In this document: positions 5,702 to 63,301 of the stretch, one piece after another
How positions within the stretch are numbered: position 1 is the first letter of the stretch
How the letters are laid out: each line of letters starts with the position of its first letter
Origin: an uncultured virus (IMG/VR IMGVR_UViG_3300025635_000024)
Taxonomy: Duplodnaviria; Heunggongvirae; Uroviricota; Caudoviricetes
DNA length: 64,000 bases
Strand: one strand, 5' to 3'
IMG/VR virus record: IMGVR_UViG_3300025635_000024
Program-made: the position numbers and the translations under genes
The notes under the pieces: generated by a model
The model's database searches: none
Told to the model about the DNA's origin: nothing
What the model saw: the letters and a program-made list of their open reading frames with translations, nothing else

Positions 5702-7108
5702 TTAAGCTTGAGTTGTAACCGCGATGGCATCCCAACGGGTATTGTCGGCGTTATAAATGCAGCCCACATACGTTGTCTTACCAGCAGTAGTGGAGGTTGG
5801 TAGGGTGACACCTATAGCAGTATAGGTAGCGTTCCAGGTTAATGACCGGCTCGTACCATTATCCAAAAATCTAAACAATAATTTATTGCCGTTTACTGGC
5901 GTGCCAATAGGCGCATTTATTGTTAATCCTGAAGCTAATGCTGTGTAAGCGTATACATCTTTTGCTGATATATCAGGCGTTAAAGATGTAGCTGTAGCAG
6001 CAGAAACACTTCTAGGATCTAATCTTGGTGAGTTACTTTTTTCCCATAGATCTGTTGTGCTGTTATATACAATGGTTTGGCCATTGCTAGGCGATTGCGC
6101 AGCAACATTATGCAGTTCATCTAACTCATAGCCATTCTGTACTTTAACAAATAGTTTTCCTTGCGTAGGGTGTGCATACTCAACAATAGCTACATAAACA
6201 AGATGATCAGGAGCGTAAGGTTTTGTACTCGTATACGTACCAGCAACTGTAGGACTTAAATATAACTGCGTTCCATCGGAGTACGCCGACGTATCCATCC
6301 CGGTAACCAAACCGATGATGGTTACATATCCATTTGCGTTATTTGCTAGATCCGCCGATATAACACCTAACGTCTGTGCTGAAGTAGTATCGCCGCTTGC
6401 AAGAGCTTTGGTTACAGTAGAAATTTGACCTGTAGCGCCAGAGATATAGACTACCGTTCCTTTAGTCAGGGTTGCGCCAGTAGTATTTCTAACTTGAGCA
6501 ACTACATTCGTGGTTGATGCAGCTACTGCTACAGATAAATCTACGGCGCCGCTAGTGGTAGTTACCGTCACACTGCCATCGGCAGAAGCAACCGAGCTAA
6601 TGCCACCACCGCCATTGTTAGTGGACATGGTAGTGACATGACGGATTTGTTCAGCTAGATTGGGTGCGACTACCTCACCGACATTTATCTCTTTGCCAGT
6701 CGATAAAGTAATAACTAACGAACCGTCAAAATCGATTTTTGCGTCTGTAACCGATACGCCGTCTTTACCATCTACGCCATCGCGCCCATCACGACCATCT
6801 TTACCGTTTTTTCCCTCTAGTCCTCGAGGACCAGGTGGCCCATCCTTACCATCACGGCCATCTTTGCCAGGCCGCCCTTCAATTTTGGCTGCTTTATCGT
6901 TAAAACTTTGCTCAAAAAGGTTAAATTTATCTTCTATGTCGTTACGTATCTTTTTTAACGACTGTAAAACCAAATCCGTATTGGTTTTTACCAATTCTTT
7001 TTGGCGTACTTTGCTGTTTACTAATGCTTTTTCGATAGATGACAGAAGTTTTACCTGTTCTGACAGGCTCATGCTATCTAAATTAAGGTTTTTTATGATG
7101 TCACTCAT
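5702..7108 (-). CDS. Phage B collagen-repeat virion fibre or decoration protein
   Basis: N-terminal coiled coil, G-X-Y run (GRPGKDGRDGKDGPPGPRG...), Thr-rich C-terminal domains; directly after the portal. Confidence 0.7.
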   Translation of the reverse strand: MSDIIKNLNLDSMSLSEQVKLLSSIEKALVNSKVRQKELVKTNTDLVLQSLKKIRNDIEDKFNLFEQSFNDKAAKIEGRPGKDGRDGKDGPPGPRGLEGKNGKDGRDGRDGVDGKDGVSVTDAKIDFDGSLVITLSTGKEINVGEVVAPNLAEQIRHVTTMSTNNGGGGISSVASADGSVTVTTTSGAVDLSVAVAASTTNVVAQVRNTTGATLTKGTVVYISGATGQISTVTKALASGDTTSAQTLGVISADLANNANGYVTIIGLVTGMDTSAYSDGTQLYLSPTVAGTYTSTKPYAPDHLVYVAIVEYAHPTQGKLFVKVQNGYELDELHNVAAQSPSNGQTIVYNSTTDLWEKSNSPRLDPRSVSAATATSLTPDISAKDVYAYTALASGLTINAPIGTPVNGNKLLFRFLDNGTSRSLTWNATYTAIGVTLPTSTTAGKTTYVGCIYNADNTRWDAIAVTTQA

Positions 7109-9147
7109 TAGCGTAACCCTTTAGAGAGCTCTTCTAAAAAGTCATTATCAACTTTTAGGTTATCTTCGGCTGTTTTAGCCATTTGCATCTCGACAATCTT
7201 CGACTTGTTCTTGATGTCGGCTTCTTTTAGCATCAATTCGGCGATCTTCACCCGTTTGTCAAACTCTTTGGACGCCATCTCGTCGTTAGTTGGCAGATTC
7301 TGCGTATTGGCGGCCATAATCTTGCTCTGCACCTCAATCGGCTTTAATTTCGTCTCGATTGTGGTGTTAATGGCTTCCGCCCGGTTGCGTTCAGCCTGCG
7401 TCTGGTTGACCGCAATCTGCGCTTGCGCTGCCTGCATGGCCAGTTGCTGCTGCATCATGGCTGCTTGCTGCGCTTCTGGGTTAGGCTGCGCCATCTGCGT
7501 CAGCGATTCCATCAGCTCCATGCGGTTTGACAGCGAGCTGTTGGCCACAATACCCTTCAGAATCAGCGGCAAGACTGGTGTGTCGGGGCCAAGGGTCTGC
7601 AGCAAGGCGATAAACTGCGCTTGCTCGTACTCACGGGCGATGATACCCAGTGTGGCGGTCGGCACGAAGTTCAGATCGACCGATGGATAGCGCTCGGGGT
7701 CGAACTGCATGTACCGAAACGCCGCTTTTTTGATGAACGGAATCAGGAAGTCTTCCTGGAAGTTCACCAGCGTGCGCTTGTACTTCTTGATGATGGTCGC
7801 CACCGCCATTGACATGCCTGCATTGCCGCCATCACGGGCCACTTGGCTCACCATGCCTTGGCTATCCAAGGTGCCTGTGGCTTGCAGCAGCATGCGCTCG
7901 AACGCCTGCGCGGTGGTCAGGTTGTTGCCATCAGTCTGGCCAAACTTGAACGGGTACAGGATCTCGGACGGGTTGCCGTTGGTCATGAACGCCTTGCCCG
8001 GCCGCACCTCAAACTTGGCACCCCGTGGCAGACGGGTGGCGTCCATTGCCACCATCGGCACTGCAGTTAGCGCCAGCGAGTCCAAGTGCGTTCTGACTTG
8101 GGCATCGATCGCCTTTTGCATGTTGTACGCTTTTTCCACCGTGCCACGGCCAGGCAGCCGGTTGGGCACCGTGTCGTCCTGGTAGGTCAATACCGGACGG
8201 TCCTTCATCATGTACGGATTCTCTTCGGCTTTTAGCAACATGCTGTCGTTGCCGATGACCACGATAGCTTCGACCAAGTCGGTGTACTCTTCCGCCGCCG
8301 AATCTTCGGGGAACAGCTCGACCATTTCCTCGTCTTCGCTGTTCAACTTCGCCAGATACTCTTTAGGCACCAGACCATAGTAGGTCAGCAGTTTGACCTT
8401 CTCGTTCTGGTACTGGCTGACCTCTTGCGTAGGTTCCAAGTCCGTGTCGTCGTAGGTCGGCACGATGTTGACCTTACGATAGACGCCCTTTTCAATGTTG
8501 GCCACCACCTTGTGGATCGAGACGTACTTCTCAATCGCCACACCCATGCAGTCGTCCACCGACGTGCCGTTGGGATCCCACAGGAAGTTCTTTGGATTCA
8601 CGGGTATGGGCTTGACCGAGACGCGATCCGTCTCTTGCACGCCGATAGCCGCTTGACCTTGCATGCCGGGAATCGGTTGCGTGGCTGGCGTGTACTCTTT
8701 TTCCATCGTGACCGTGATCTCGGCGATACCCGTGCCGTAAATCTCAGCCAAGAGCTCGATCTGATCGACGTACTTCCTGAACTTGTCCTTTTTCAGATCC
8801 TCCATCATCTGGATCTTGATCATCTCGACATCCATCGGATTGCCGTCGATGTCCTTGACGTCGTCCTTGATGTCGAAGAACTCGCCCGAACCAAAGATCG
8901 CCTCCATGATCTCAGCGTGTCTGGTTTCGACCGCCTGCTGCGTCATGGGGGTTACGATGCGGGAGCGTTCAGAGTCGCGCGTCTTGTCTTCGATGGCCCA
9001 TTCACCACGGAAGATGCGCTCATATTCTTCCCATTGCGGGAGAAAGTTGACGTTGCGGTAGTCGCGCCAGCGGTCGCAGTGGTCTACCACGAAAGCGATA
9101 AGCTCTTTATCGTTCTCAGTGGGCTGGTCAAAATCGTTTTGGTCCAT
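7108..9147 (-). CDS. Phage B portal protein
   Basis: 679 aa directly after terL, with a Q/A-rich helical C-terminal barrel as in P22-like podovirus portals. Confidence 0.85.
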   Translation of the reverse strand: MDQNDFDQPTENDKELIAFVVDHCDRWRDYRNVNFLPQWEEYERIFRGEWAIEDKTRDSERSRIVTPMTQQAVETRHAEIMEAIFGSGEFFDIKDDVKDIDGNPMDVEMIKIQMMEDLKKDKFRKYVDQIELLAEIYGTGIAEITVTMEKEYTPATQPIPGMQGQAAIGVQETDRVSVKPIPVNPKNFLWDPNGTSVDDCMGVAIEKYVSIHKVVANIEKGVYRKVNIVPTYDDTDLEPTQEVSQYQNEKVKLLTYYGLVPKEYLAKLNSEDEEMVELFPEDSAAEEYTDLVEAIVVIGNDSMLLKAEENPYMMKDRPVLTYQDDTVPNRLPGRGTVEKAYNMQKAIDAQVRTHLDSLALTAVPMVAMDATRLPRGAKFEVRPGKAFMTNGNPSEILYPFKFGQTDGNNLTTAQAFERMLLQATGTLDSQGMVSQVARDGGNAGMSMAVATIIKKYKRTLVNFQEDFLIPFIKKAAFRYMQFDPERYPSVDLNFVPTATLGIIAREYEQAQFIALLQTLGPDTPVLPLILKGIVANSSLSNRMELMESLTQMAQPNPEAQQAAMMQQQLAMQAAQAQIAVNQTQAERNRAEAINTTIETKLKPIEVQSKIMAANTQNLPTNDEMASKEFDKRVKIAELMLKEADIKNKSKIVEMQMAKTAEDNLKVDNDFLEELSKGLR

Positions 9148-9148
9148 C

Positions 9149-10408
9149 CTACACCCCAGAAATTACGTCTATCGGCTCCCAATCATCGTCAGCATCGTCG
9201 ATGAAGTAGGAAGTCACCGCCAGCTGGTCAATGTAAGAGAGCGCATCGGGTAGGTCATCGTGGACGCCTTGCGCCGGAAACATCAACAGCTGGTCAAGAA
9301 AGGTCTCAAAATCACCTTCTTGGTTGAGCACGATCCTGCCGTGCTCGAACCGACCCTGGAGGCTCCAGATGATCCGGTCAGCCTTTTTCCGGTTGCCATG
9401 CGTGAGATCAACTATGTGCGAATATACATTATTTTTGCGCATTAAATCACTCAAATACGGCAAAACCGCGTTTTTTAGTGCCCCTCGCTCAATCCCGACC
9501 GACAGGGGCCGGTAGTCGCGCATGGCCATTAGAATCTTCGCTGCCGTCTCGCGGATGTCCCAGCGCCCGTGCTGAATGTCCTTGACGAACCACTTGCCGT
9601 CGTCCGTCACTTTCACGATCGCGATCGCCGTCTCGTCCAGTCGCTTCTTCGAGTTCGCCGCCTGCTTGGCCACTTCCTCAAACCCGGCCAAGTCCACCGC
9701 CACGAAGTAGCTGCCATAGTCCGGCTCCTCGCCATACTTGATCCACTCGTCCTTGAAGATGTCCGAGCCCGCGTTGTCAAAACTTGCCATGTACTCTTGC
9801 TTAAATGCAAAGGTCGATAGCGTCTTTTTCGCCGACTCGATTTCCTTCGGGTCAATCAGCGGATTGTCTTTGGTCGTGAAGTGCCAGCTCTTCCAGTCCG
9901 TGTCGTCGCCCGTCTGTCCTAACTTGTATAGGTCGTTGAACCAGTTTCGACCCTTGGGCGTTCCAATGAACATGGCGCGACCCTTCTTGTCGGACAGAGA
10001 CGCGCGAATGACCTGCTCCCAGGCTTCGGGCTTGATGTCCGCCACCTCGTCTAGCACGGCGTAGGTCAAGGACACGCCTCGCAGGGTGTCTGGCCGATCC
10101 GCGCCACGCACGTAGATCACCGCGCCGTTGACCATCGTGATGTCCTGATTGTTCACATGACTGCCGGCGATCACTTCCTTGCCCAGCTCTAACAACACAT
10201 TCCAGATAATCTGTCGCGCCTGACCGTTGGTGGGCGCTACGTACAGGACCGCCGAGCCAGGCGGGCAGCGCAGCGCCTCGATGATCAGCGTAGTAGCCGC
10301 TAACCTAGACTTGCCACAACGCCTGCCAGCGGCCACCACTTTAAAGCGCGTTGGGTCGTTGAAGACCTCCTGCTGCCAGGGTAGTAACTGGAAGTTAAGG
10401 TCCGACAT
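9149..10408 (-). CDS. terL: Phage B terminase large subunit
   Basis: Walker A AGRRCGKS, Walker B AVLDE, GTPKG motif, RNase H-like VDLA and HDDLPDA. Confidence 0.95.
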   Translation of the reverse strand: MSDLNFQLLPWQQEVFNDPTRFKVVAAGRRCGKSRLAATTLIIEALRCPPGSAVLYVAPTNGQARQIIWNVLLELGKEVIAGSHVNNQDITMVNGAVIYVRGADRPDTLRGVSLTYAVLDEVADIKPEAWEQVIRASLSDKKGRAMFIGTPKGRNWFNDLYKLGQTGDDTDWKSWHFTTKDNPLIDPKEIESAKKTLSTFAFKQEYMASFDNAGSDIFKDEWIKYGEEPDYGSYFVAVDLAGFEEVAKQAANSKKRLDETAIAIVKVTDDGKWFVKDIQHGRWDIRETAAKILMAMRDYRPLSVGIERGALKNAVLPYLSDLMRKNNVYSHIVDLTHGNRKKADRIIWSLQGRFEHGRIVLNQEGDFETFLDQLLMFPAQGVHDDLPDALSYIDQLAVTSYFIDDADDDWEPIDVISGV

Positions 10409-18884: not shown

Positions 18885-19453
18885 CCCCATTGCGCTGCCA
18901 TTGCGTCGGCAATGCCTTGAAATGTTTTTGACCTTATTTTTCCGCTTTTATTGTCTGAGTACCATTTAGGCAGTTTTTTCCCTGTAGGCGATATATAGAA
19001 ATCGCCTTTATCAACAATATTCGTAGGGCTTAGTAACGGTAAATTTTTAAGCCACAGACAAGTTGTTTTTTGGGCTTTATCACCAAATTGCCATGGCTGA
19101 ATTATTTGATCTGGTTTACGGTAAATGGTACTCATAATCCCAACAGGATTTTCTACAGCTATTTTGGGTATATTTGCGTTAGCAATTTTCATAAAAAAAT
19201 CTATGCCCTGTTGTTGCCGTCCATCAGCGCGCTTCTTTGCAAAATGTTTTGCCCCGCTGACTGCCAAATGCGTGCAAGGAGGGAAGGCAATCATTAAATC
19301 CCATCCGTCATCAATAACATCAAATATATCGCCTTGGTAATGAGGGCCAGGCGCATCGGTAGCCAATATGTCGCACGACATAGCTTCATGACCTCTAGCT
19401 ATAAATGCGTCACGGACAGCCCCGGAATATTCGCAAGCTATAAGAATTTTCAT
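18881..19453 (-). CDS. Short C5-cytosine DNA methyltransferase-like protein
   Basis: ACEYSG SAM-binding start, catalytic FPPC, ENPV motif; AT-rich. Confidence 0.75.
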   Translation of the reverse strand: MKILIACEYSGAVRDAFIARGHEAMSCDILATDAPGPHYQGDIFDVIDDGWDLMIAFPPCTHLAVSGAKHFAKKRADGRQQQGIDFFMKIANANIPKIAVENPVGIMSTIYRKPDQIIQPWQFGDKAQKTTCLWLKNLPLLSPTNIVDKGDFYISPTGKKLPKWYSDNKSGKIRSKTFQGIADAMAAQWG

Positions 19454-19472
19454 AATTTTTATTCTGAGAGGG

Positions 19473-19542
19473 TGGCCCCAGTCACCGCCTCATCAGGTCG
19501 AACCGACCAAGGAAAAACCTGATGATTAGACAACTAGGGCCA
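19473..19542 (-). ncRNA. Putative long hairpin RNA with pyrimidine-rich loop
   Basis: TCATCAGGT/ACCTGATGA 9-bp inner stem plus outer TGGCCC/GGGCCA; minus-strand loop UUUUCCUUGGUCGGUUCG. Confidence 0.5.
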
Positions 19543-19551
19543 TTGAAGGGT

Positions 19552-19614
19552 GGGGTACTCGCTGCACTGAGCCTCGGTGGCCATGGGACGTATCCGCAGC
19601 ATCCGCTTTCCCCC
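19552..19614 (-). ncRNA. Putative structured RNA (GAAAGCGGAUGCUG...CAGUGCAGCGAGUA), phage B copy
   Basis: Shares core sequence with 63138-63212, with a different but still pairing closing stem; 7 nt after the SSB stop. Confidence 0.65.
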
Positions 19615-19621
19615 GTGCTAC

Positions 19622-20251
19622 TTACGCCGAGCGACGACGACGTGCTGGTGCGGCTTCTTCAGCAGGCGCGTCTTGCTCCGCCTCTTCCGATTTGCCGTCC
19701 ATGCCGACCCACTCAACAATTTCAAACACTGGCGTGAAAATCTTGCCGTAGCTCTTGTGTTTGTATGAGTCGTTTTTCAAGCGCACGACGGGAACCGGCT
19801 TGCTCTGATCGGTTTCAATCTGCTGCGCAATCGCAACGCCTAATTGCTGCACGGCTTTCTTACCGCCCACCGACGTCACAGTAAAGCGCACTTCCATGCC
19901 CTTGTCTGCACCGCTAAGGGCTTTCAAACCCATACCCACTTGCACTTGCCAGCCTTTCTCGGCGTTGGGTGGTGCTGCACCAACTTCAGGCAATGGCTCC
20001 ATGACAGGAACCATCGTCTCGGCCAGCACTTCAGCGTCGCCCCAAGCGATATAGCCGTGAACGAACGACATTGGGTTGACAGCCCAGAGCGTGCCTTCTT
20101 CGACTTCCGTTTGGTTTGCGCCGTAGATCCAGTCCCCACGTTTATCCATCTTCAGGATGATGGAGCCCACAGGACCGACGTCTTTTTCAAGCGTGCGCAG
20201 AGCAGTAGTCAAGGCCGCGACGTTTGGGAGATTTGCTAGAGCGAATGACAT
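19622..20251 (-). CDS. Probable ssDNA-binding protein (DUF2815-like context)
   Basis: Between DUF2800 and the polymerase; SYKHKSYGKIFTPVFEIVEW motif and acidic C-terminal tail. Confidence 0.65.
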   Translation of the reverse strand: MSFALANLPNVAALTTALRTLEKDVGPVGSIILKMDKRGDWIYGANQTEVEEGTLWAVNPMSFVHGYIAWGDAEVLAETMVPVMEPLPEVGAAPPNAEKGWQVQVGMGLKALSGADKGMEVRFTVTSVGGKKAVQQLGVAIAQQIETDQSKPVPVVRLKNDSYKHKSYGKIFTPVFEIVEWVGMDGKSEEAEQDAPAEEAAPARRRRSA

Positions 20252-20267
20252 TGTACTTTCCTTTACT

Positions 20268-21386
20268 TTAAAGTTTAGAGAGGGCCGCAGTTAACTGCTT
20301 CCCGATTTGCAACACCGCTGGCCTCGGATCTGACTCCGGTGCCAACGTACTACCCGACGAAACCGATACAACCAGATGCGACGGTAATTTTATTTTAATC
20401 TTTTTAAGCGCCTTCTCGGCCTGCGCTGGAGAAATAACTTCAAGCTCTTTGTACGGCTCAACAAGAGACTTTAACAGAAACTGCTTGGCCTTCTCTTCGC
20501 TCACCCACTGGCGCTGCGCCTGCTTGGCGACTAACTTGTAGCCTGGCACCGGGTGATCCTTTTCAAGCATCTGGAACGCCAGCGCACGCAGGTCTTTGAT
20601 GTAGTCTTCCAGTCGATCGGCTTGCTCTAATTGCATCGCGATCTGTTCTGCCGGCAGGTTAGCCAGCTGCAGTTTCAGCGCACGCTCGACTTCGCCTGTC
20701 ATCTGCGGGCAGATCGGCTTGGCTGCGCACCAGCGGCAATGGTCGCCTGTTTGCATCGGCGCGTTAGGCCAACTGGCGATGCGAACGGCCTTGGCTAACT
20801 CGATTTCAAAGTCAATCACCCGCGCCGGTGTCGTCACCCAACGACGGATGGCCGGCGGCTGCACGATGATGCACTCGATTTCTTCTACGTCTTCAAAGAC
20901 CCATTGTGCGGCGGGTGTTCGCATTGCCGCAGCTGCGTAAAATAGTAGCTGAGGGTTTTCCACAGCATCCACAAGTACACCATCGCCAAATTTCCAATCC
21001 AGAACGACCGCGCGTTTATTCTTACGCCCAAGTAGGTCAGTGCTACCAAAGACACCAGGCAGATAATCGCCAAACCCAACTCGGGTCTCCACCATGTATT
21101 CCATCGTCTTGTCGGGGTCGATGGTGTCGAGTGCTTCAAGAGCGGGAATAATCTTCTCATCAAGTAGCTCCTGTGTTAGAACCTGATCTTTGTAGGTGGC
21201 GCCAATGCACTGCTGTGGCGGCTTGTCGAACTCGAGTAGTTCGGCGATCACGTTGTGCAGCAGTGTGCCACGGTCTGCGTGTTCACTCGAGGGTTTGGGC
21301 GGCATCTTGGCGCAGAGTGCGACTGACGCCGGGCAGCTGATGACGCGCTTGGCAGTCGAGCCACCGACAATATTAGAATGGTTCAC
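20268..21386 (-). CDS. DUF2800 / Cas4-like PD-(D/E)XK exonuclease
   Basis: GTLLH, GSTD, LDWKFG, QLLFYA, HCRWC...CP. Probable GTG start at 21386 with a GGAG RBS. Confidence 0.8.
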   Translation of the reverse strand: MNHSNIVGGSTAKRVISCPASVALCAKMPPKPSSEHADRGTLLHNVIAELLEFDKPPQQCIGATYKDQVLTQELLDEKIIPALEALDTIDPDKTMEYMVETRVGFGDYLPGVFGSTDLLGRKNKRAVVLDWKFGDGVLVDAVENPQLLFYAAAAMRTPAAQWVFEDVEEIECIIVQPPAIRRWVTTPARVIDFEIELAKAVRIASWPNAPMQTGDHCRWCAAKPICPQMTGEVERALKLQLANLPAEQIAMQLEQADRLEDYIKDLRALAFQMLEKDHPVPGYKLVAKQAQRQWVSEEKAKQFLLKSLVEPYKELEVISPAQAEKALKKIKIKLPSHLVVSVSSGSTLAPESDPRPAVLQIGKQLTAALSKL

Positions 21387-46742: not shown

Positions 46743-47423
46743 TTAGTAATCCAAATCCCTAACAATCATTGCTGGAAAATTCTTTACCCCAAGCAAATTC
46801 AATGCCCCAAGCCTATGACCACCCTCAAGAACATACGGGCCTTCTTTATCAATAGCAACAATTAAAGGATCAATATATTTATTTTCTTTAATCTGATTAG
46901 CCAAGTCTTTTACTCTTTTTATATCATCAGCAGACCTAAATAAGTCATAAGGGCTACTTCCTTTAAATGCACTCATTGGCACAGACCTAATTCCTACGTC
47001 AGTCTCGTATTTATTAAACGATGCTGGAATAGAACTAGTGTTTTTTATATTTTCGCCAACTCTCAACCCATCAACAACCTTCTGAGCTTTAGGATACTGA
47101 ACAAAGAAAGGAGCCATTCTTTCCAAATTATTAAGAGGATTATTTAATGGCTTTACTGATCCAGCAAAACCCATAGCTACATCATTGGTAACCCTATCTA
47201 CATATTGCCTAGCAGCTAATTGCTCAGGAGTAACTGGCAATCCTTTACTAGCGTTTATATCACCCTGAACCGCAAGTGATTGCAATCGATTAAAGTCTCT
47301 CGCTTGGCCTTCCATTGTTGCTAGATATTCTCTTGGATCGCTAAAAAGCAAGCCTAAATTAGCTTTAGCAGCCTGTTTAGACCTATCTATAAATCCAGTA
47401 ATATCAGATAACAATCCAGCCAT
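46743..47423 (-). CDS. Post-portal protein with C-terminal ParB/Srx-like domain
   Basis: IDPLIV....YVLEGGHRLGAL motif; AT-rich; MAGLL N-terminus. Confidence 0.6.
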   Translation of the reverse strand: MAGLLSDITGFIDRSKQAAKANLGLLFSDPREYLATMEGQARDFNRLQSLAVQGDINASKGLPVTPEQLAARQYVDRVTNDVAMGFAGSVKPLNNPLNNLERMAPFFVQYPKAQKVVDGLRVGENIKNTSSIPASFNKYETDVGIRSVPMSAFKGSSPYDLFRSADDIKRVKDLANQIKENKYIDPLIVAIDKEGPYVLEGGHRLGALNLLGVKNFPAMIVRDLDY

Positions 47424-49528
47424 TACGCGCTCCCGGTAAGGCTACCCAGTTCCTTAATCGTCTTCAGGACAATCTCAGCCTGTTTTGTACGGCTGGCCTC
47501 GTCTGCAATGTCCATAGCCAAAATAGCTTGCAATTGCTGGACTGCTAACTGAGCCTCTTTAATCCGAATATCGGCCTGATCCTTCTGGTTCTTCATCTGC
47601 ATCTCAATGCCCTTACGGGTGAACTCAGCCTCTAGCGTCTGACGCTCCAGATCCAACTTAGCAGCATCAATCTGAGCCTTGGCCTGAGTTTTCTCACGCT
47701 CAACATCTGCCAGCATCTTGGCTACCTCGGCCTGTGCATCAGGAGCAGGAGGCTGTGGCTGCGACAACATCTGGTCTTGCTCAGGCGTAATCTCATTCAT
47801 GAAGGCATTAGCATCTTTGAAACCTGCTGCCTCAATGAACTTAGCCAATGTATTCCGGTACTGACCAACCGATACCAATGGATTCGATGGGCCATACTGC
47901 TGAATAATCTGTTCCTGCTTTGCAAGAATCATCTGGAGCATTGCCAGTTTCTGATCCCGGTCACCAGCGCCAAGACCAACATTGACCGATACATCGTACT
48001 CATTTGACCATGTACGAGGATCAAACTGGACGTACTTGCCACGCATACGGACGATCTTTGGCTTGTCCTGATACTTGCCCAACAGATGCAAAATACCCCT
48101 AAACAAGCTCTTAACGCCAGTCTCAGCAAAGATACGGGCAATCAACTCCAGCTTGCCAGAGTTCGACTTCATCATCGCAGCAACAGCAGCAGCCGTTACA
48201 TTGGACAACACATCTGGGTCAAGACCTTGTTGTGCGTCATTAACACCAGTACGCTTAGTCTGGATCTCGTCCATGTACTGGAGCATTGGCATAGCCTGAC
48301 CAAAGGTAGACTGAACCTGAAGCGGAACCAGAGCGTTAGGATTCTTGATTCTGACAATACCGCCGGGAGTAGCGTTCAGCAGGTCATCTAGGTTCACCTG
48401 ACCGTCTACAGCACCAACCCGGTTATTGTTCGTCAGATAGAGATTATCGAGAGACTGACGGGTAACAGTGGACTTGATAAGCTGGATGTCCATAACCCGA
48501 TCTGCCAGCGACTGACCGAAAAACTTGTGCGGAATAGGGATAGGACAGATGCTGTGGAATGGAATAAAGTCGCAGTCTTCATCTTCTAGTATTTCCGATC
48601 CGCAATAAACAATCCTACGCAACTCAGCGATTCCGTCATCGTTCTCGTCAATGCGTATATAGCACTCGTATACCTCGACCGTCTGCATGGCAGGATCGAT
48701 GGCCTGAGTTTGATCTGGCTGCTCACCTTGGTTAAAACGAGCAACACGCTCAGGAGAGAAGGATAGATCGTCATAAGAAGGTAGCGCATCTACGATGTCT
48801 TTGTCGTAGCCCATTGCAATCAATTCTGACCGCTGCATGAGCTTTCGATGAGCTACAAAAGGAGAATCCTCAATATTCCTAGCAGCCTTGGAAATCAGGA
48901 ACTCCTCGGGAGGAACATTCTCAATCTTGACTTGACCGTACTTGTTCACCCGCTTGACCGTAACGTCATAGGACGGAGCCATGACAGGCTGACCCATCAT
49001 ATCCGTACCAGCAGGGATCATCTCTACCTTCTGACGGACAACCTCTAGCGACTCATCAGACAGAAGCAGCGCCAGTTCATCCTCAGTTAGGTTCTTGTAT
49101 TTCTCTTTGGTAACGTCTTCCTTGGCATCCCAATAGGATTTAACGACACCAACCTTCTGTAGCAGGGCATCCTTGAACCAGTTGTGCAGGATCAATAGAC
49201 CGTCATTTTCACGGTAAAACACCCAGTTAGAGTAATCTGTAGCCTGTTTAGCAGACTCCTCGTCTTCAGTAGTCTTAGGCTCAAAATAGACAATATCCTC
49301 AGTAGTCGTAAAGACTCGGATAAGTTGTGGCAGCGCACCATCAATAGCCTCGGCAACCTCACCAGTGACAATCTGGCTGCGTCCTTCTACCTCATTGCCA
49401 TAGGGATTACGGAGATAATAATCTAGCGCCTTACGACGTTCTTCAGTGGTTTCAGTGTCAAGATAGCCGATAGAGTCATCTATCTCGGCTTCGACAATGC
49501 TCTTAATCTGGCCTTCATCCATCTTCAT
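47423..49528 (-). CDS. Phage A portal protein
   Basis: 701 aa after terL; GNEVEGRSQ.V, KDALLQK.G motifs; Q-rich C-terminal barrel. Confidence 0.9.
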   Translation of the reverse strand: MKMDEGQIKSIVEAEIDDSIGYLDTETTEERRKALDYYLRNPYGNEVEGRSQIVTGEVAEAIDGALPQLIRVFTTTEDIVYFEPKTTEDEESAKQATDYSNWVFYRENDGLLILHNWFKDALLQKVGVVKSYWDAKEDVTKEKYKNLTEDELALLLSDESLEVVRQKVEMIPAGTDMMGQPVMAPSYDVTVKRVNKYGQVKIENVPPEEFLISKAARNIEDSPFVAHRKLMQRSELIAMGYDKDIVDALPSYDDLSFSPERVARFNQGEQPDQTQAIDPAMQTVEVYECYIRIDENDDGIAELRRIVYCGSEILEDEDCDFIPFHSICPIPIPHKFFGQSLADRVMDIQLIKSTVTRQSLDNLYLTNNNRVGAVDGQVNLDDLLNATPGGIVRIKNPNALVPLQVQSTFGQAMPMLQYMDEIQTKRTGVNDAQQGLDPDVLSNVTAAAVAAMMKSNSGKLELIARIFAETGVKSLFRGILHLLGKYQDKPKIVRMRGKYVQFDPRTWSNEYDVSVNVGLGAGDRDQKLAMLQMILAKQEQIIQQYGPSNPLVSVGQYRNTLAKFIEAAGFKDANAFMNEITPEQDQMLSQPQPPAPDAQAEVAKMLADVEREKTQAKAQIDAAKLDLERQTLEAEFTRKGIEMQMKNQKDQADIRIKEAQLAVQQLQAILAMDIADEASRTKQAEIVLKTIKELGSLTGSA

Positions 49529-62886: not shown

Positions 62887-63132
62887 ATGAGCAATTTTGA
62901 CAATACTAATCGTGGGATTCTCTCTAAGAATCTCAATAAGACAGCCGATAATCATCCAGAATACTCTGGTTCTATCAATATAGATGGCACAGATTACTGG
63001 CTATCTGCATGGATTAAAGAATCCAGCAAAGACGGTAAGAAGTTTTTTAGCTTGTCAGTAAAACCTAAAGATTCTGTTAAGCAGAAACCTAAAGCAAAAG
63101 ACGATCTGCCTATAGATGATGTGCCGTTCTGA
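62887..63132 (+). CDS. Small SSB-like protein
   Basis: PEYSG.I..DG..YWLSAW, acidic DDVPF C-terminus; follows ERF. Confidence 0.7.
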   Translation: MSNFDNTNRGILSKNLNKTADNHPEYSGSINIDGTDYWLSAWIKESSKDGKKFFSLSVKPKDSVKQKPKAKDDLPIDDVPF

Positions 63133-63137
63133 TCTAC

Positions 63138-63212
63138 GGCCTGAAAGCGGATACTGTGAAGTGGGTAGCTGGGATTTAATCACCGCCAGCCACAGACGCA
63201 GCGAGTAAGGCC
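63138..63212 (+). ncRNA. Putative structured RNA (GAAAGCGGAUACUG...CAGACGCAGCGAGUA), phage A copy
   Basis: Closing stem GGCCU/AGGCC, inner stem CUGUG/CACAG; 5 nt after the SSB stop. Confidence 0.65.
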
Positions 63213-63220
63213 ACCTAATA

Positions 63221-63301
63221 CGCCAAGCTAGGAGTGGCGCGTAACCCTAGCAGCAGGGGCTGAGTCCTCCTTCGTAATGCTCCAAAACTCAGTGACCCTG
63301 C
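63221..63301 (+). ncRNA. Putative pseudoknot plus hairpin with anti-Shine-Dalgarno-like loop
   Basis: CGCCA/TGGCG crossed with GCTAGG/CCTAGC, then GCAGGG-CTGAGT/ACTCAG-CCCTGC stem with loop CCTCCTT... Confidence 0.5.

Follow-up and report, generated by a model that had tools for sequence, protein, structure and literature searches.

Comparative sequence evidence for a modular loop-E-type RNA element with RNase P-type borders in uncultured phages

Few natural non-tRNA substrates of RNase P are known. PMC10731613, PMC11143913 and PMC5499578 name the C4, CI, M3 and 4.5S RNAs as substrates that lack a T loop, and describe pairing of a 3′ RCC with RNase P RNA, A-2U-1 as the optimal leader and an inhibitory effect of pairing between the leader and RCC; a CC end in turn blocks RNase T, according to PMC3439924. 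The C4 antisense RNA of phages P1 and P7 (RF01695, clan CL00128), located in an antirepressor leader, and the CI RNA of P4 are phage-borne, have A at −2 of the leader, G+1 and a 3′ ACC, and are freed by RNase P from a longer transcript. Pre-4.5S (SRP) RNA and the phi80 M3 RNA are long irregular hairpins starting with G, the stem being followed by ACC(U/C). The RNase P hairpin of hisCD lies within an operon mRNA, part of which it is proposed to stabilise. Finally, the tandem structured STAXI motif is found near SSB and DNA-handling genes and sometimes near c4 RNAs, as described in Weinberg 2010 (PMC2864571).

The element described here was recognised in a 64-kb stretch of DNA from an uncultured tailed phage (IMG/VR record IMGVR_UViG_3300025635_000024), below called the window. 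It shares with C4 and CI the phage origin, G+1, the 3′ ACC and A-2, and its release by RNase P is predicted. However, it has no match to the Rfam C4 model, for which the phage P1 control scores 68.8 bits, its own model gives no match at the C4 region of phage P1, and it differs further from C4 in its loop E base, its tandem arrays and its slot behind replication and recombination genes. Compared with pre-4.5S and M3 RNA, it has no RF00169 match, a far shorter terminal stem and a variable top. Compared with the hisCD hairpin it is a repeated, modular and sequence-conserved family, and its cleavage is a prediction only. STAXI is a repeated pseudoknot, in contrast to the present stem with internal loops, and this difference in fold, together with the lack of an Rfam match in the window, speaks against membership in that family. 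By analogy, the family would act most like the RNase P-matured phage RNAs, without being a member of the C4 family.

Two copies in the window and their upstream genes

The original prediction had placed one structured motif directly behind the genes for single-stranded DNA-binding (SSB) proteins of two unrelated phages, 5-7 nt past the stop codon. Both copies are indeed present as described, and the two-part core pattern matches the window twice, against 0.00 matches expected and 0/100 shuffles. P1 of copy B (19614-19611 with 19555-19552, enclosing the core 19610-19556, minus strand) begins 7 nt past a TAA at 19624-19622, and copy A (63138-63212, plus strand) lies 5 nt past a TGA at 63130-63132. 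The features of the two loci are the following.

19622..20251, minus strand: gene upstream of copy B, encoding a probable SSB of 209 aa with an OB-type fold (Gp3/RDF-like)
19615..19621, minus strand: unpaired leader of 7 nt after the stop of this gene, with A at −2 (19616) and C at −1 (19615)
19611..19614, minus strand: copy B P1, 5′ strand, with G+1, acceptor-stem-like (from covariation)
19601..19610, minus strand: copy B core, 5′ half, with the GAA side of loop E, two G-C pairs and the GGAU side of a second internal loop
19566..19600, minus strand: copy B P3 (19600-19597 with 19569-19566, from pair types), closing a variable top of 27 nt
19556..19565, minus strand: copy B core, 3′ half, the last part being the AGUA side of loop E
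19552..19555, minus strand: copy B P1, 3′ strand (from covariation)
19549..19551, minus strand: unpaired ACC tail (discriminator and CC) immediately 3′ of copy B P1
19471..19541, minus strand: second tandem unit, a long hairpin that covaries and lacks loop E, with an A-2 U-1 G+1 leader and an ACC tail (folding z −5.17)
62887..63132, plus strand: upstream gene of phage A, an 81-aa SSB, after an ERF gene
63138..63215, plus strand: copy A, with a 5-bp P1 of other sequence, the same core, a longer top and an A-2 C-1 G+1 leader; the ACC tail is 63213-63215
63220..63253, plus strand: H-type pseudoknot-like element 3′ of copy A, a separate motif

Folding energy alone is unexceptional compared with shuffled sequences (z 0.46 for copy B and −1.65 for copy A), and the structural case therefore rests on covariation. 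The second tandem unit keeps A-2 U-1 G+1 and the ACC tail in 15/15 listed relatives. As to the pseudoknot-like element, its second stem covaries across 14 distinct relatives, and Rfam gives no match; behind this element, a hairpin with a 3-nt bulge (63254-63301, plus strand) recurs in A-type relatives. The window also holds two portal genes (7108-10408 and 47423-49528) and a GC shift, which indicates that it consists of joined pieces of at least two phage contigs.

The two upstream proteins show no evident sequence similarity (BLASTP E 2.3), in agreement with the original prediction. Its statement that both are SSBs stands for phage A, where the protein matches SSB PHROGs (E 3e-17), and is weakened to plausible for phage B. 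The phage B protein has no Pfam match, matches PHROG 9528, which is labelled nucleotidyltransferase, and gives a model that has no Foldseek match at E 0.001. This OB-type model comes closest, with a middling score, to the phiC31 RDF (Z 7.5, rmsd 4.8, 141 residues aligned), followed by the PRD1 and T4 SSBs at an equally middling Z of about 4. The gene has a DUF2800 exonuclease on one side and a methyltransferase-PolA pair on the other, and phage B has genes of its own for primase, helicase and polymerase. The family of this protein comprises 5772 homologs, with a C-terminus that is arginine-rich rather than acidic.

Covariation, spread and modular organisation

The motif is widespread, the exact core having at least 120 matches in viral contigs and at least 120 in metagenome contigs, so that the search for further homologues, suggested as a check on the motif, did find them. 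Among the viral-contig matches listed, without any selection for the stem, P1 of at least four pairs is formed in 111 of 122 rows. For covariation we aligned the two window copies with 84 rows picked for a stem of at least three pairs and short length, a choice that inflates the paired fraction of this alignment. In these 86 rows, double-sided changes number 14, 15, 19 and 35 at the four inner pairs of P1; the P1 covariation score was reached by 0/500 shuffles, and every slid register scored lower. P3 covaries as well, one of its pairs being UA in 88, CG in 20 and GC in 5 of 116 elements. The core hardly moves: when allowed to vary, its centre is unchanged in 105/107 elements and the GGAU/GCA neck in 72/98. 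Closing stems that differ and still pair around a conserved core had been noted from the two copies alone, and the relatives bear this out.

Within the core, GAA and AGUA flank P1 directly, a placement that we take to be the geometry of loop E. The likeness to the loop E or S-turn module, known from the sarcin-ricin loop and others, lies in AGUA opposite GAA beside a canonical stem. The element has no GNRA cap, and it is not a mimic of the sarcin-ricin loop because P1 occupies the side where the latter carries its tetraloop. Taken together, sequence comparison indicates that the motif is a real, covarying, loop-E-type structured element, as had been proposed.

The element belongs apparently to an undescribed RNA family. 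The Rfam check, suggested in the original prediction, gave nothing at the gathering threshold in the window; near the two copies there were only weak unrelated matches, with a limit of E 10, and in 20 related loci there was no match to E 0.5. A full-text literature search for the core strings returned 0 papers, and topic searches returned no description of the motif. Six supplementary files of Fremin 2023 (8,495 IMG/VR candidates) contain no match, and the motif may be among the unnamed candidates of that study; the supplements of PMC5737381 and PMC10690425 may also bear on novelty.

In blastn searches of cultured phages, three natural copies matched only two spring-water records of identical length, and plasmids gave only weak matches, nearly all within coding genes. 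Bacterial genomes seldom carry the element: of 120 matches listed from a pattern scan of them, 8 have a P1 of at least three pairs, the others being consistent with chance; in one family the pattern finds the element in 2 of 401 genomes, and in Comamonas the model finds it in 5 of 77. Several Pseudomonas genomes (L378, L390, L393 and others) carry repeated 37-nt matches to the two core halves, often at contig ends and without P1, which are probably an unrelated repeat.

The 120 loci listed for a pattern restricted to the base, which it fixes so that base conservation cannot be judged from it, carry 65 distinct tops, the smallest form measuring 27 nt. Arrays of 2-4 units with spacers of 6-9 nt occur in 28 of 154 distinct arrangements. 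The loop motif of the second unit (19471..19541) is also carried, among the matches listed, by loop-E elements behind A-type genes, and one top motif was found on two unrelated carrier stems. The sequences thus describe the element as one member of a modular family, with a constant loop-E base, swappable tops and arrays of 2-4. These arrays and tops go beyond the original prediction, as do the RNase P-type borders and the LexA-associated chromosomal copy treated below.

A same-strand open frame ends at most 40 nt upstream of 91/108 elements, and 4-8 nt before P1 in 59/108, compared with 25/114 and scattered distances in the opposite-strand control. Of 76 upstream proteins called, 71 were scanned and 15 bear an SSB label; the others are MazG, endonucleases, an exonuclease, GroES or proteins without a known label, many of which have acidic or aromatic C-terminal tails. 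Such tails are typical of SSBs. In a gene-anchored count, an automatic and crude procedure in which duplicates and incomplete loci were dropped and at least one true core element was missed, an element with G-stem and RCC lies behind 26/64 distinct B-type loci and 26/40 A-type loci, against 2% in shuffles; B-type loci have terminator-like or plain hairpins instead in 24/64 and neither in 14/64. The element is thus placed on the sense strand, often but not only behind SSB genes. The tie to SSB holds in part: labelled proteins and SSB-like tails speak for it, but most upstream proteins lack the label and fewer than half of the B-type loci carry the element.

Two further observations concern these gene slots. 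Another multi-stem RNA motif, which lacks loop E and has a GAGGAUG-type loop and a G-rich closing stem mostly followed by RCC, occupies the same slot behind the B-type gene in L653, L665, L671, L673, L686, L704 and L706, and has no Rfam match in L671. Small cysteine-rich proteins are encoded upstream of the element in L002, L015, L043, L048, L071, L105 and L112; the five scanned belong to no PHROG family, and in other loci they lie directly behind the A-type SSB.

RNase P-type borders

Of 167 elements, taken from sets whose choice did not depend on the flanks, 152 have G+1; G is avoided in the leader, being present at −1 in 4 and at −2 in 1. Position −2 is A in 112 and C is the commonest residue at −1 (105/167). 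The tail is ACC in 134 and RCC in 139, the first residue of xCC tails is a purine in 139/143, and the reversed-sequence control gave 0 elements. All these counts are to be read with the shared ancestry of the elements in mind, and do not represent independent events. RCC is also kept by 74/97 elements whose stem is not all G, and ACC adjoins the stem end whether P1 has 4, 5 or 6 bp. The same picture emerged from a held-out metagenome set: among its 90 new elements that form P1, 80 have G+1, 3 have G-1, 3 have G-2 and 67 have RCC (60 without the trimming rule, by which a terminal pyrimidine-purine pair is cut off the stem end), compared with a background of 2.4% for RCC and 18% for G.

The C4 RNA of phage P1 has A-2 U-1 G+1 and a 3′ end in ACC. 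In five host-type genomes, 4.5S RNA has a stem with an ACCU end in three and RNase P RNA ends in ACAC in four. By sequence, the borders of the element resemble those of RNase P substrates, as in these C4 and 4.5S RNAs, even though P1 counts only 4-6 bp before the irregular part compared with 12 bp in tRNA. RNase P probably cuts the element, and in copy B the border statistics of the family would place the cut between 19615 and 19614.

RNA-library contigs of a relative neither show nor exclude processing. Two of them, from one sample, span the upstream gene and the element (X1, 19538-20322; X6, 19550-19864) and run unbroken across the predicted cut, which means that uncut RNA or DNA is present. 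The end of X1 cannot be taken as an RNA end because it shares about 34 nt with the contig that follows, which is the pattern of a branch in the assembly graph. Positions 19013-19414 are without cover, and neither this gap nor the contig ends near the element were weighed as evidence.

Possible roles of the element

Of the functions first suggested for the motif, that of a non-coding RNA or processing element now appears to be the best reading. With slightly less than even confidence, we favour a small RNA that is released by RNase P and binds to a protein of the host. The element would be transcribed together with the early or middle phage gene in front of it and would serve as the cassette for a small stable RNA. 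Host RNase P would read P1 with RCC as an acceptor stem without T loop, as in C4 and pre-4.5S RNA, and cut just before G+1. A second cut, either in the U-rich spacer or where the following unit starts, and 3′ trimming stopped at CC, would then leave an RNA of 30-90 nt, and tandem arrays would give several such RNAs. The weakest step of this scheme is the binding of a conserved host protein by the invariant core, whose most likely role would be that of a decoy or modulator when ssDNA accumulates, in phage replication or SOS. Release is favoured by the G+1/RCC borders, the arrays, the many tops on one base and the Comamonas copies that lie without an ORF before a terminator-like hairpin. Against it stand C instead of the optimal U at −1, the short P1, the loss of RCC in some of these Comamonas copies and the unbroken RNA-library contigs.

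The same borders would be expected if RNase P solely split the operon mRNA, as with hisCD (PMC10731613), leaving the hairpin as a protective 5′ end of the downstream mRNA and setting the ratio of upstream to downstream products. The position at gene junctions, shortly past the stop codon and in a slot shared with terminators, fits this as well, and the T4 gene 32 mRNA is named as an RNase P substrate in PMC11143913. But a single site would suffice, yet the arrays hold 2-4 different units; the core is conserved far beyond the needs of RNase P, and behind the chromosomal copies, which are closed by a terminator, there is no gene to shield. We consider this reading unlikely. Just as unlikely is an uncut 3′-end stabiliser, in which stem and ACC would halt exonucleases on the upstream mRNA and raise SSB output in the manner of a terminator hairpin. 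The B-type gene can be followed by terminator-like or plain hairpins in place of the element, an exchange that fits a role at the mRNA level, the RNA-library contigs link gene and element and end near its 3′ side, and RNase T is blocked by CC (PMC3439924). On the other hand, a stabiliser has no need of G+1, of a purine before CC or of A at −2, shuffled sequences fold just as stably, and the X1 end resembles an assembly branch. An intrinsic terminator as such was rejected, none being called at 19552-19614, where ACC parts the stem from the U-rich tail.

The two internal loops hold some 20 near-invariant nucleotides, which lie between stems that vary freely and could also form the active site of a self-cleaving ribozyme or a ligand-sensing RNA. 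However, the neck is swapped or missing in siblings down to 27 nt, there is neither an expression platform nor a common downstream gene, the permuted order gives only 17 matches, which are tandem copies or apparent chance, and no Rfam ribozyme matches, so that such a role seems very improbable. The ssDNA structure considered in the original prediction fared worst. AAGCGG in the element, which we take to be the hexamer of primosome assembly sites, might point to an ssDNA hairpin of this kind, at which host PriA would be loaded onto the template of the lagging strand; so might ColE1 1336-1364, where both core halves occur with two mismatches each and in swapped order. But the two halves come together no more often than chance predicts (2 cases, with about 1 expected on half-site counts), the model matches neither the ColE1 site nor the phiX174 F-G hairpin, the hexamer is lost in many siblings, the position follows stop codons and the ACC tail, and phage B has its own replication enzymes; we give this possibility next to no credit. 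Two other roles were tried and rejected. As stimulator of readthrough or frameshifting, the element shows no length bias by frame, and the stops are mostly UAA. As cis antisense guide of the C4 type, 272 tops gave both-side 7-mer seeds at 0.062 compared with 0.062 in the control, while the C4 control itself shows targets (2 up, 5 down); complementarity to wider flanks was 7.71 against 7.68. For one top motif that recurs, five host-type genomes were searched and gave no conserved match.

Five Comamonas genomes have one locus type, with the element between two LexA-type boxes and a hairpin followed by a terminator-like stem and a U run; seemingly from one lineage, they count as one event. The boxes score 13-16 of 20 on the consensus, two boxes were found in 0/1000 shuffled windows, and recA in these genomes carries comparable ones (score 12-14). 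In 3/5 copies the stretch from boxes to element is free of any substantial ORF. RCC is lost in three of the five while the core is intact, which suggests that the core has a binding role of its own. No LexA-type box reaches a score of 13 in the window, or of 14 in 75 phage loci, and the SOS link is thus confined to the Comamonas locus.

Tentatively, and with considerable doubt as to the whole, these data may be combined into a wider scenario for phages of aquatic bacteria. Host RNase P would cut modular arrays of small RNAs, made of a loop-E carrier with exchangeable payloads, from SSB and recombination transcripts; the RNAs would act as decoys of ssDNA-sensing, SOS or anti-phage defence proteins, and one Comamonas lineage would have domesticated a unit as a LexA-controlled small RNA. 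If RNase P cuts the units, they would form a large new natural class of non-tRNA substrates with exact predicted cut sites. Should the RNAs be active once released, they would represent a widespread modular toolkit of phage small RNAs linked to ssDNA metabolism, a proposal that could be tested in a cultured Comamonas strain without need of the phage. In the same genus, an ORF of about 100 aa lies downstream of two LexA-type boxes (1107-1469 of L419, Comamonas trifloxystrobinivorans J-3, without Pfam match; also L782) and is a candidate for an unannotated SOS gene.
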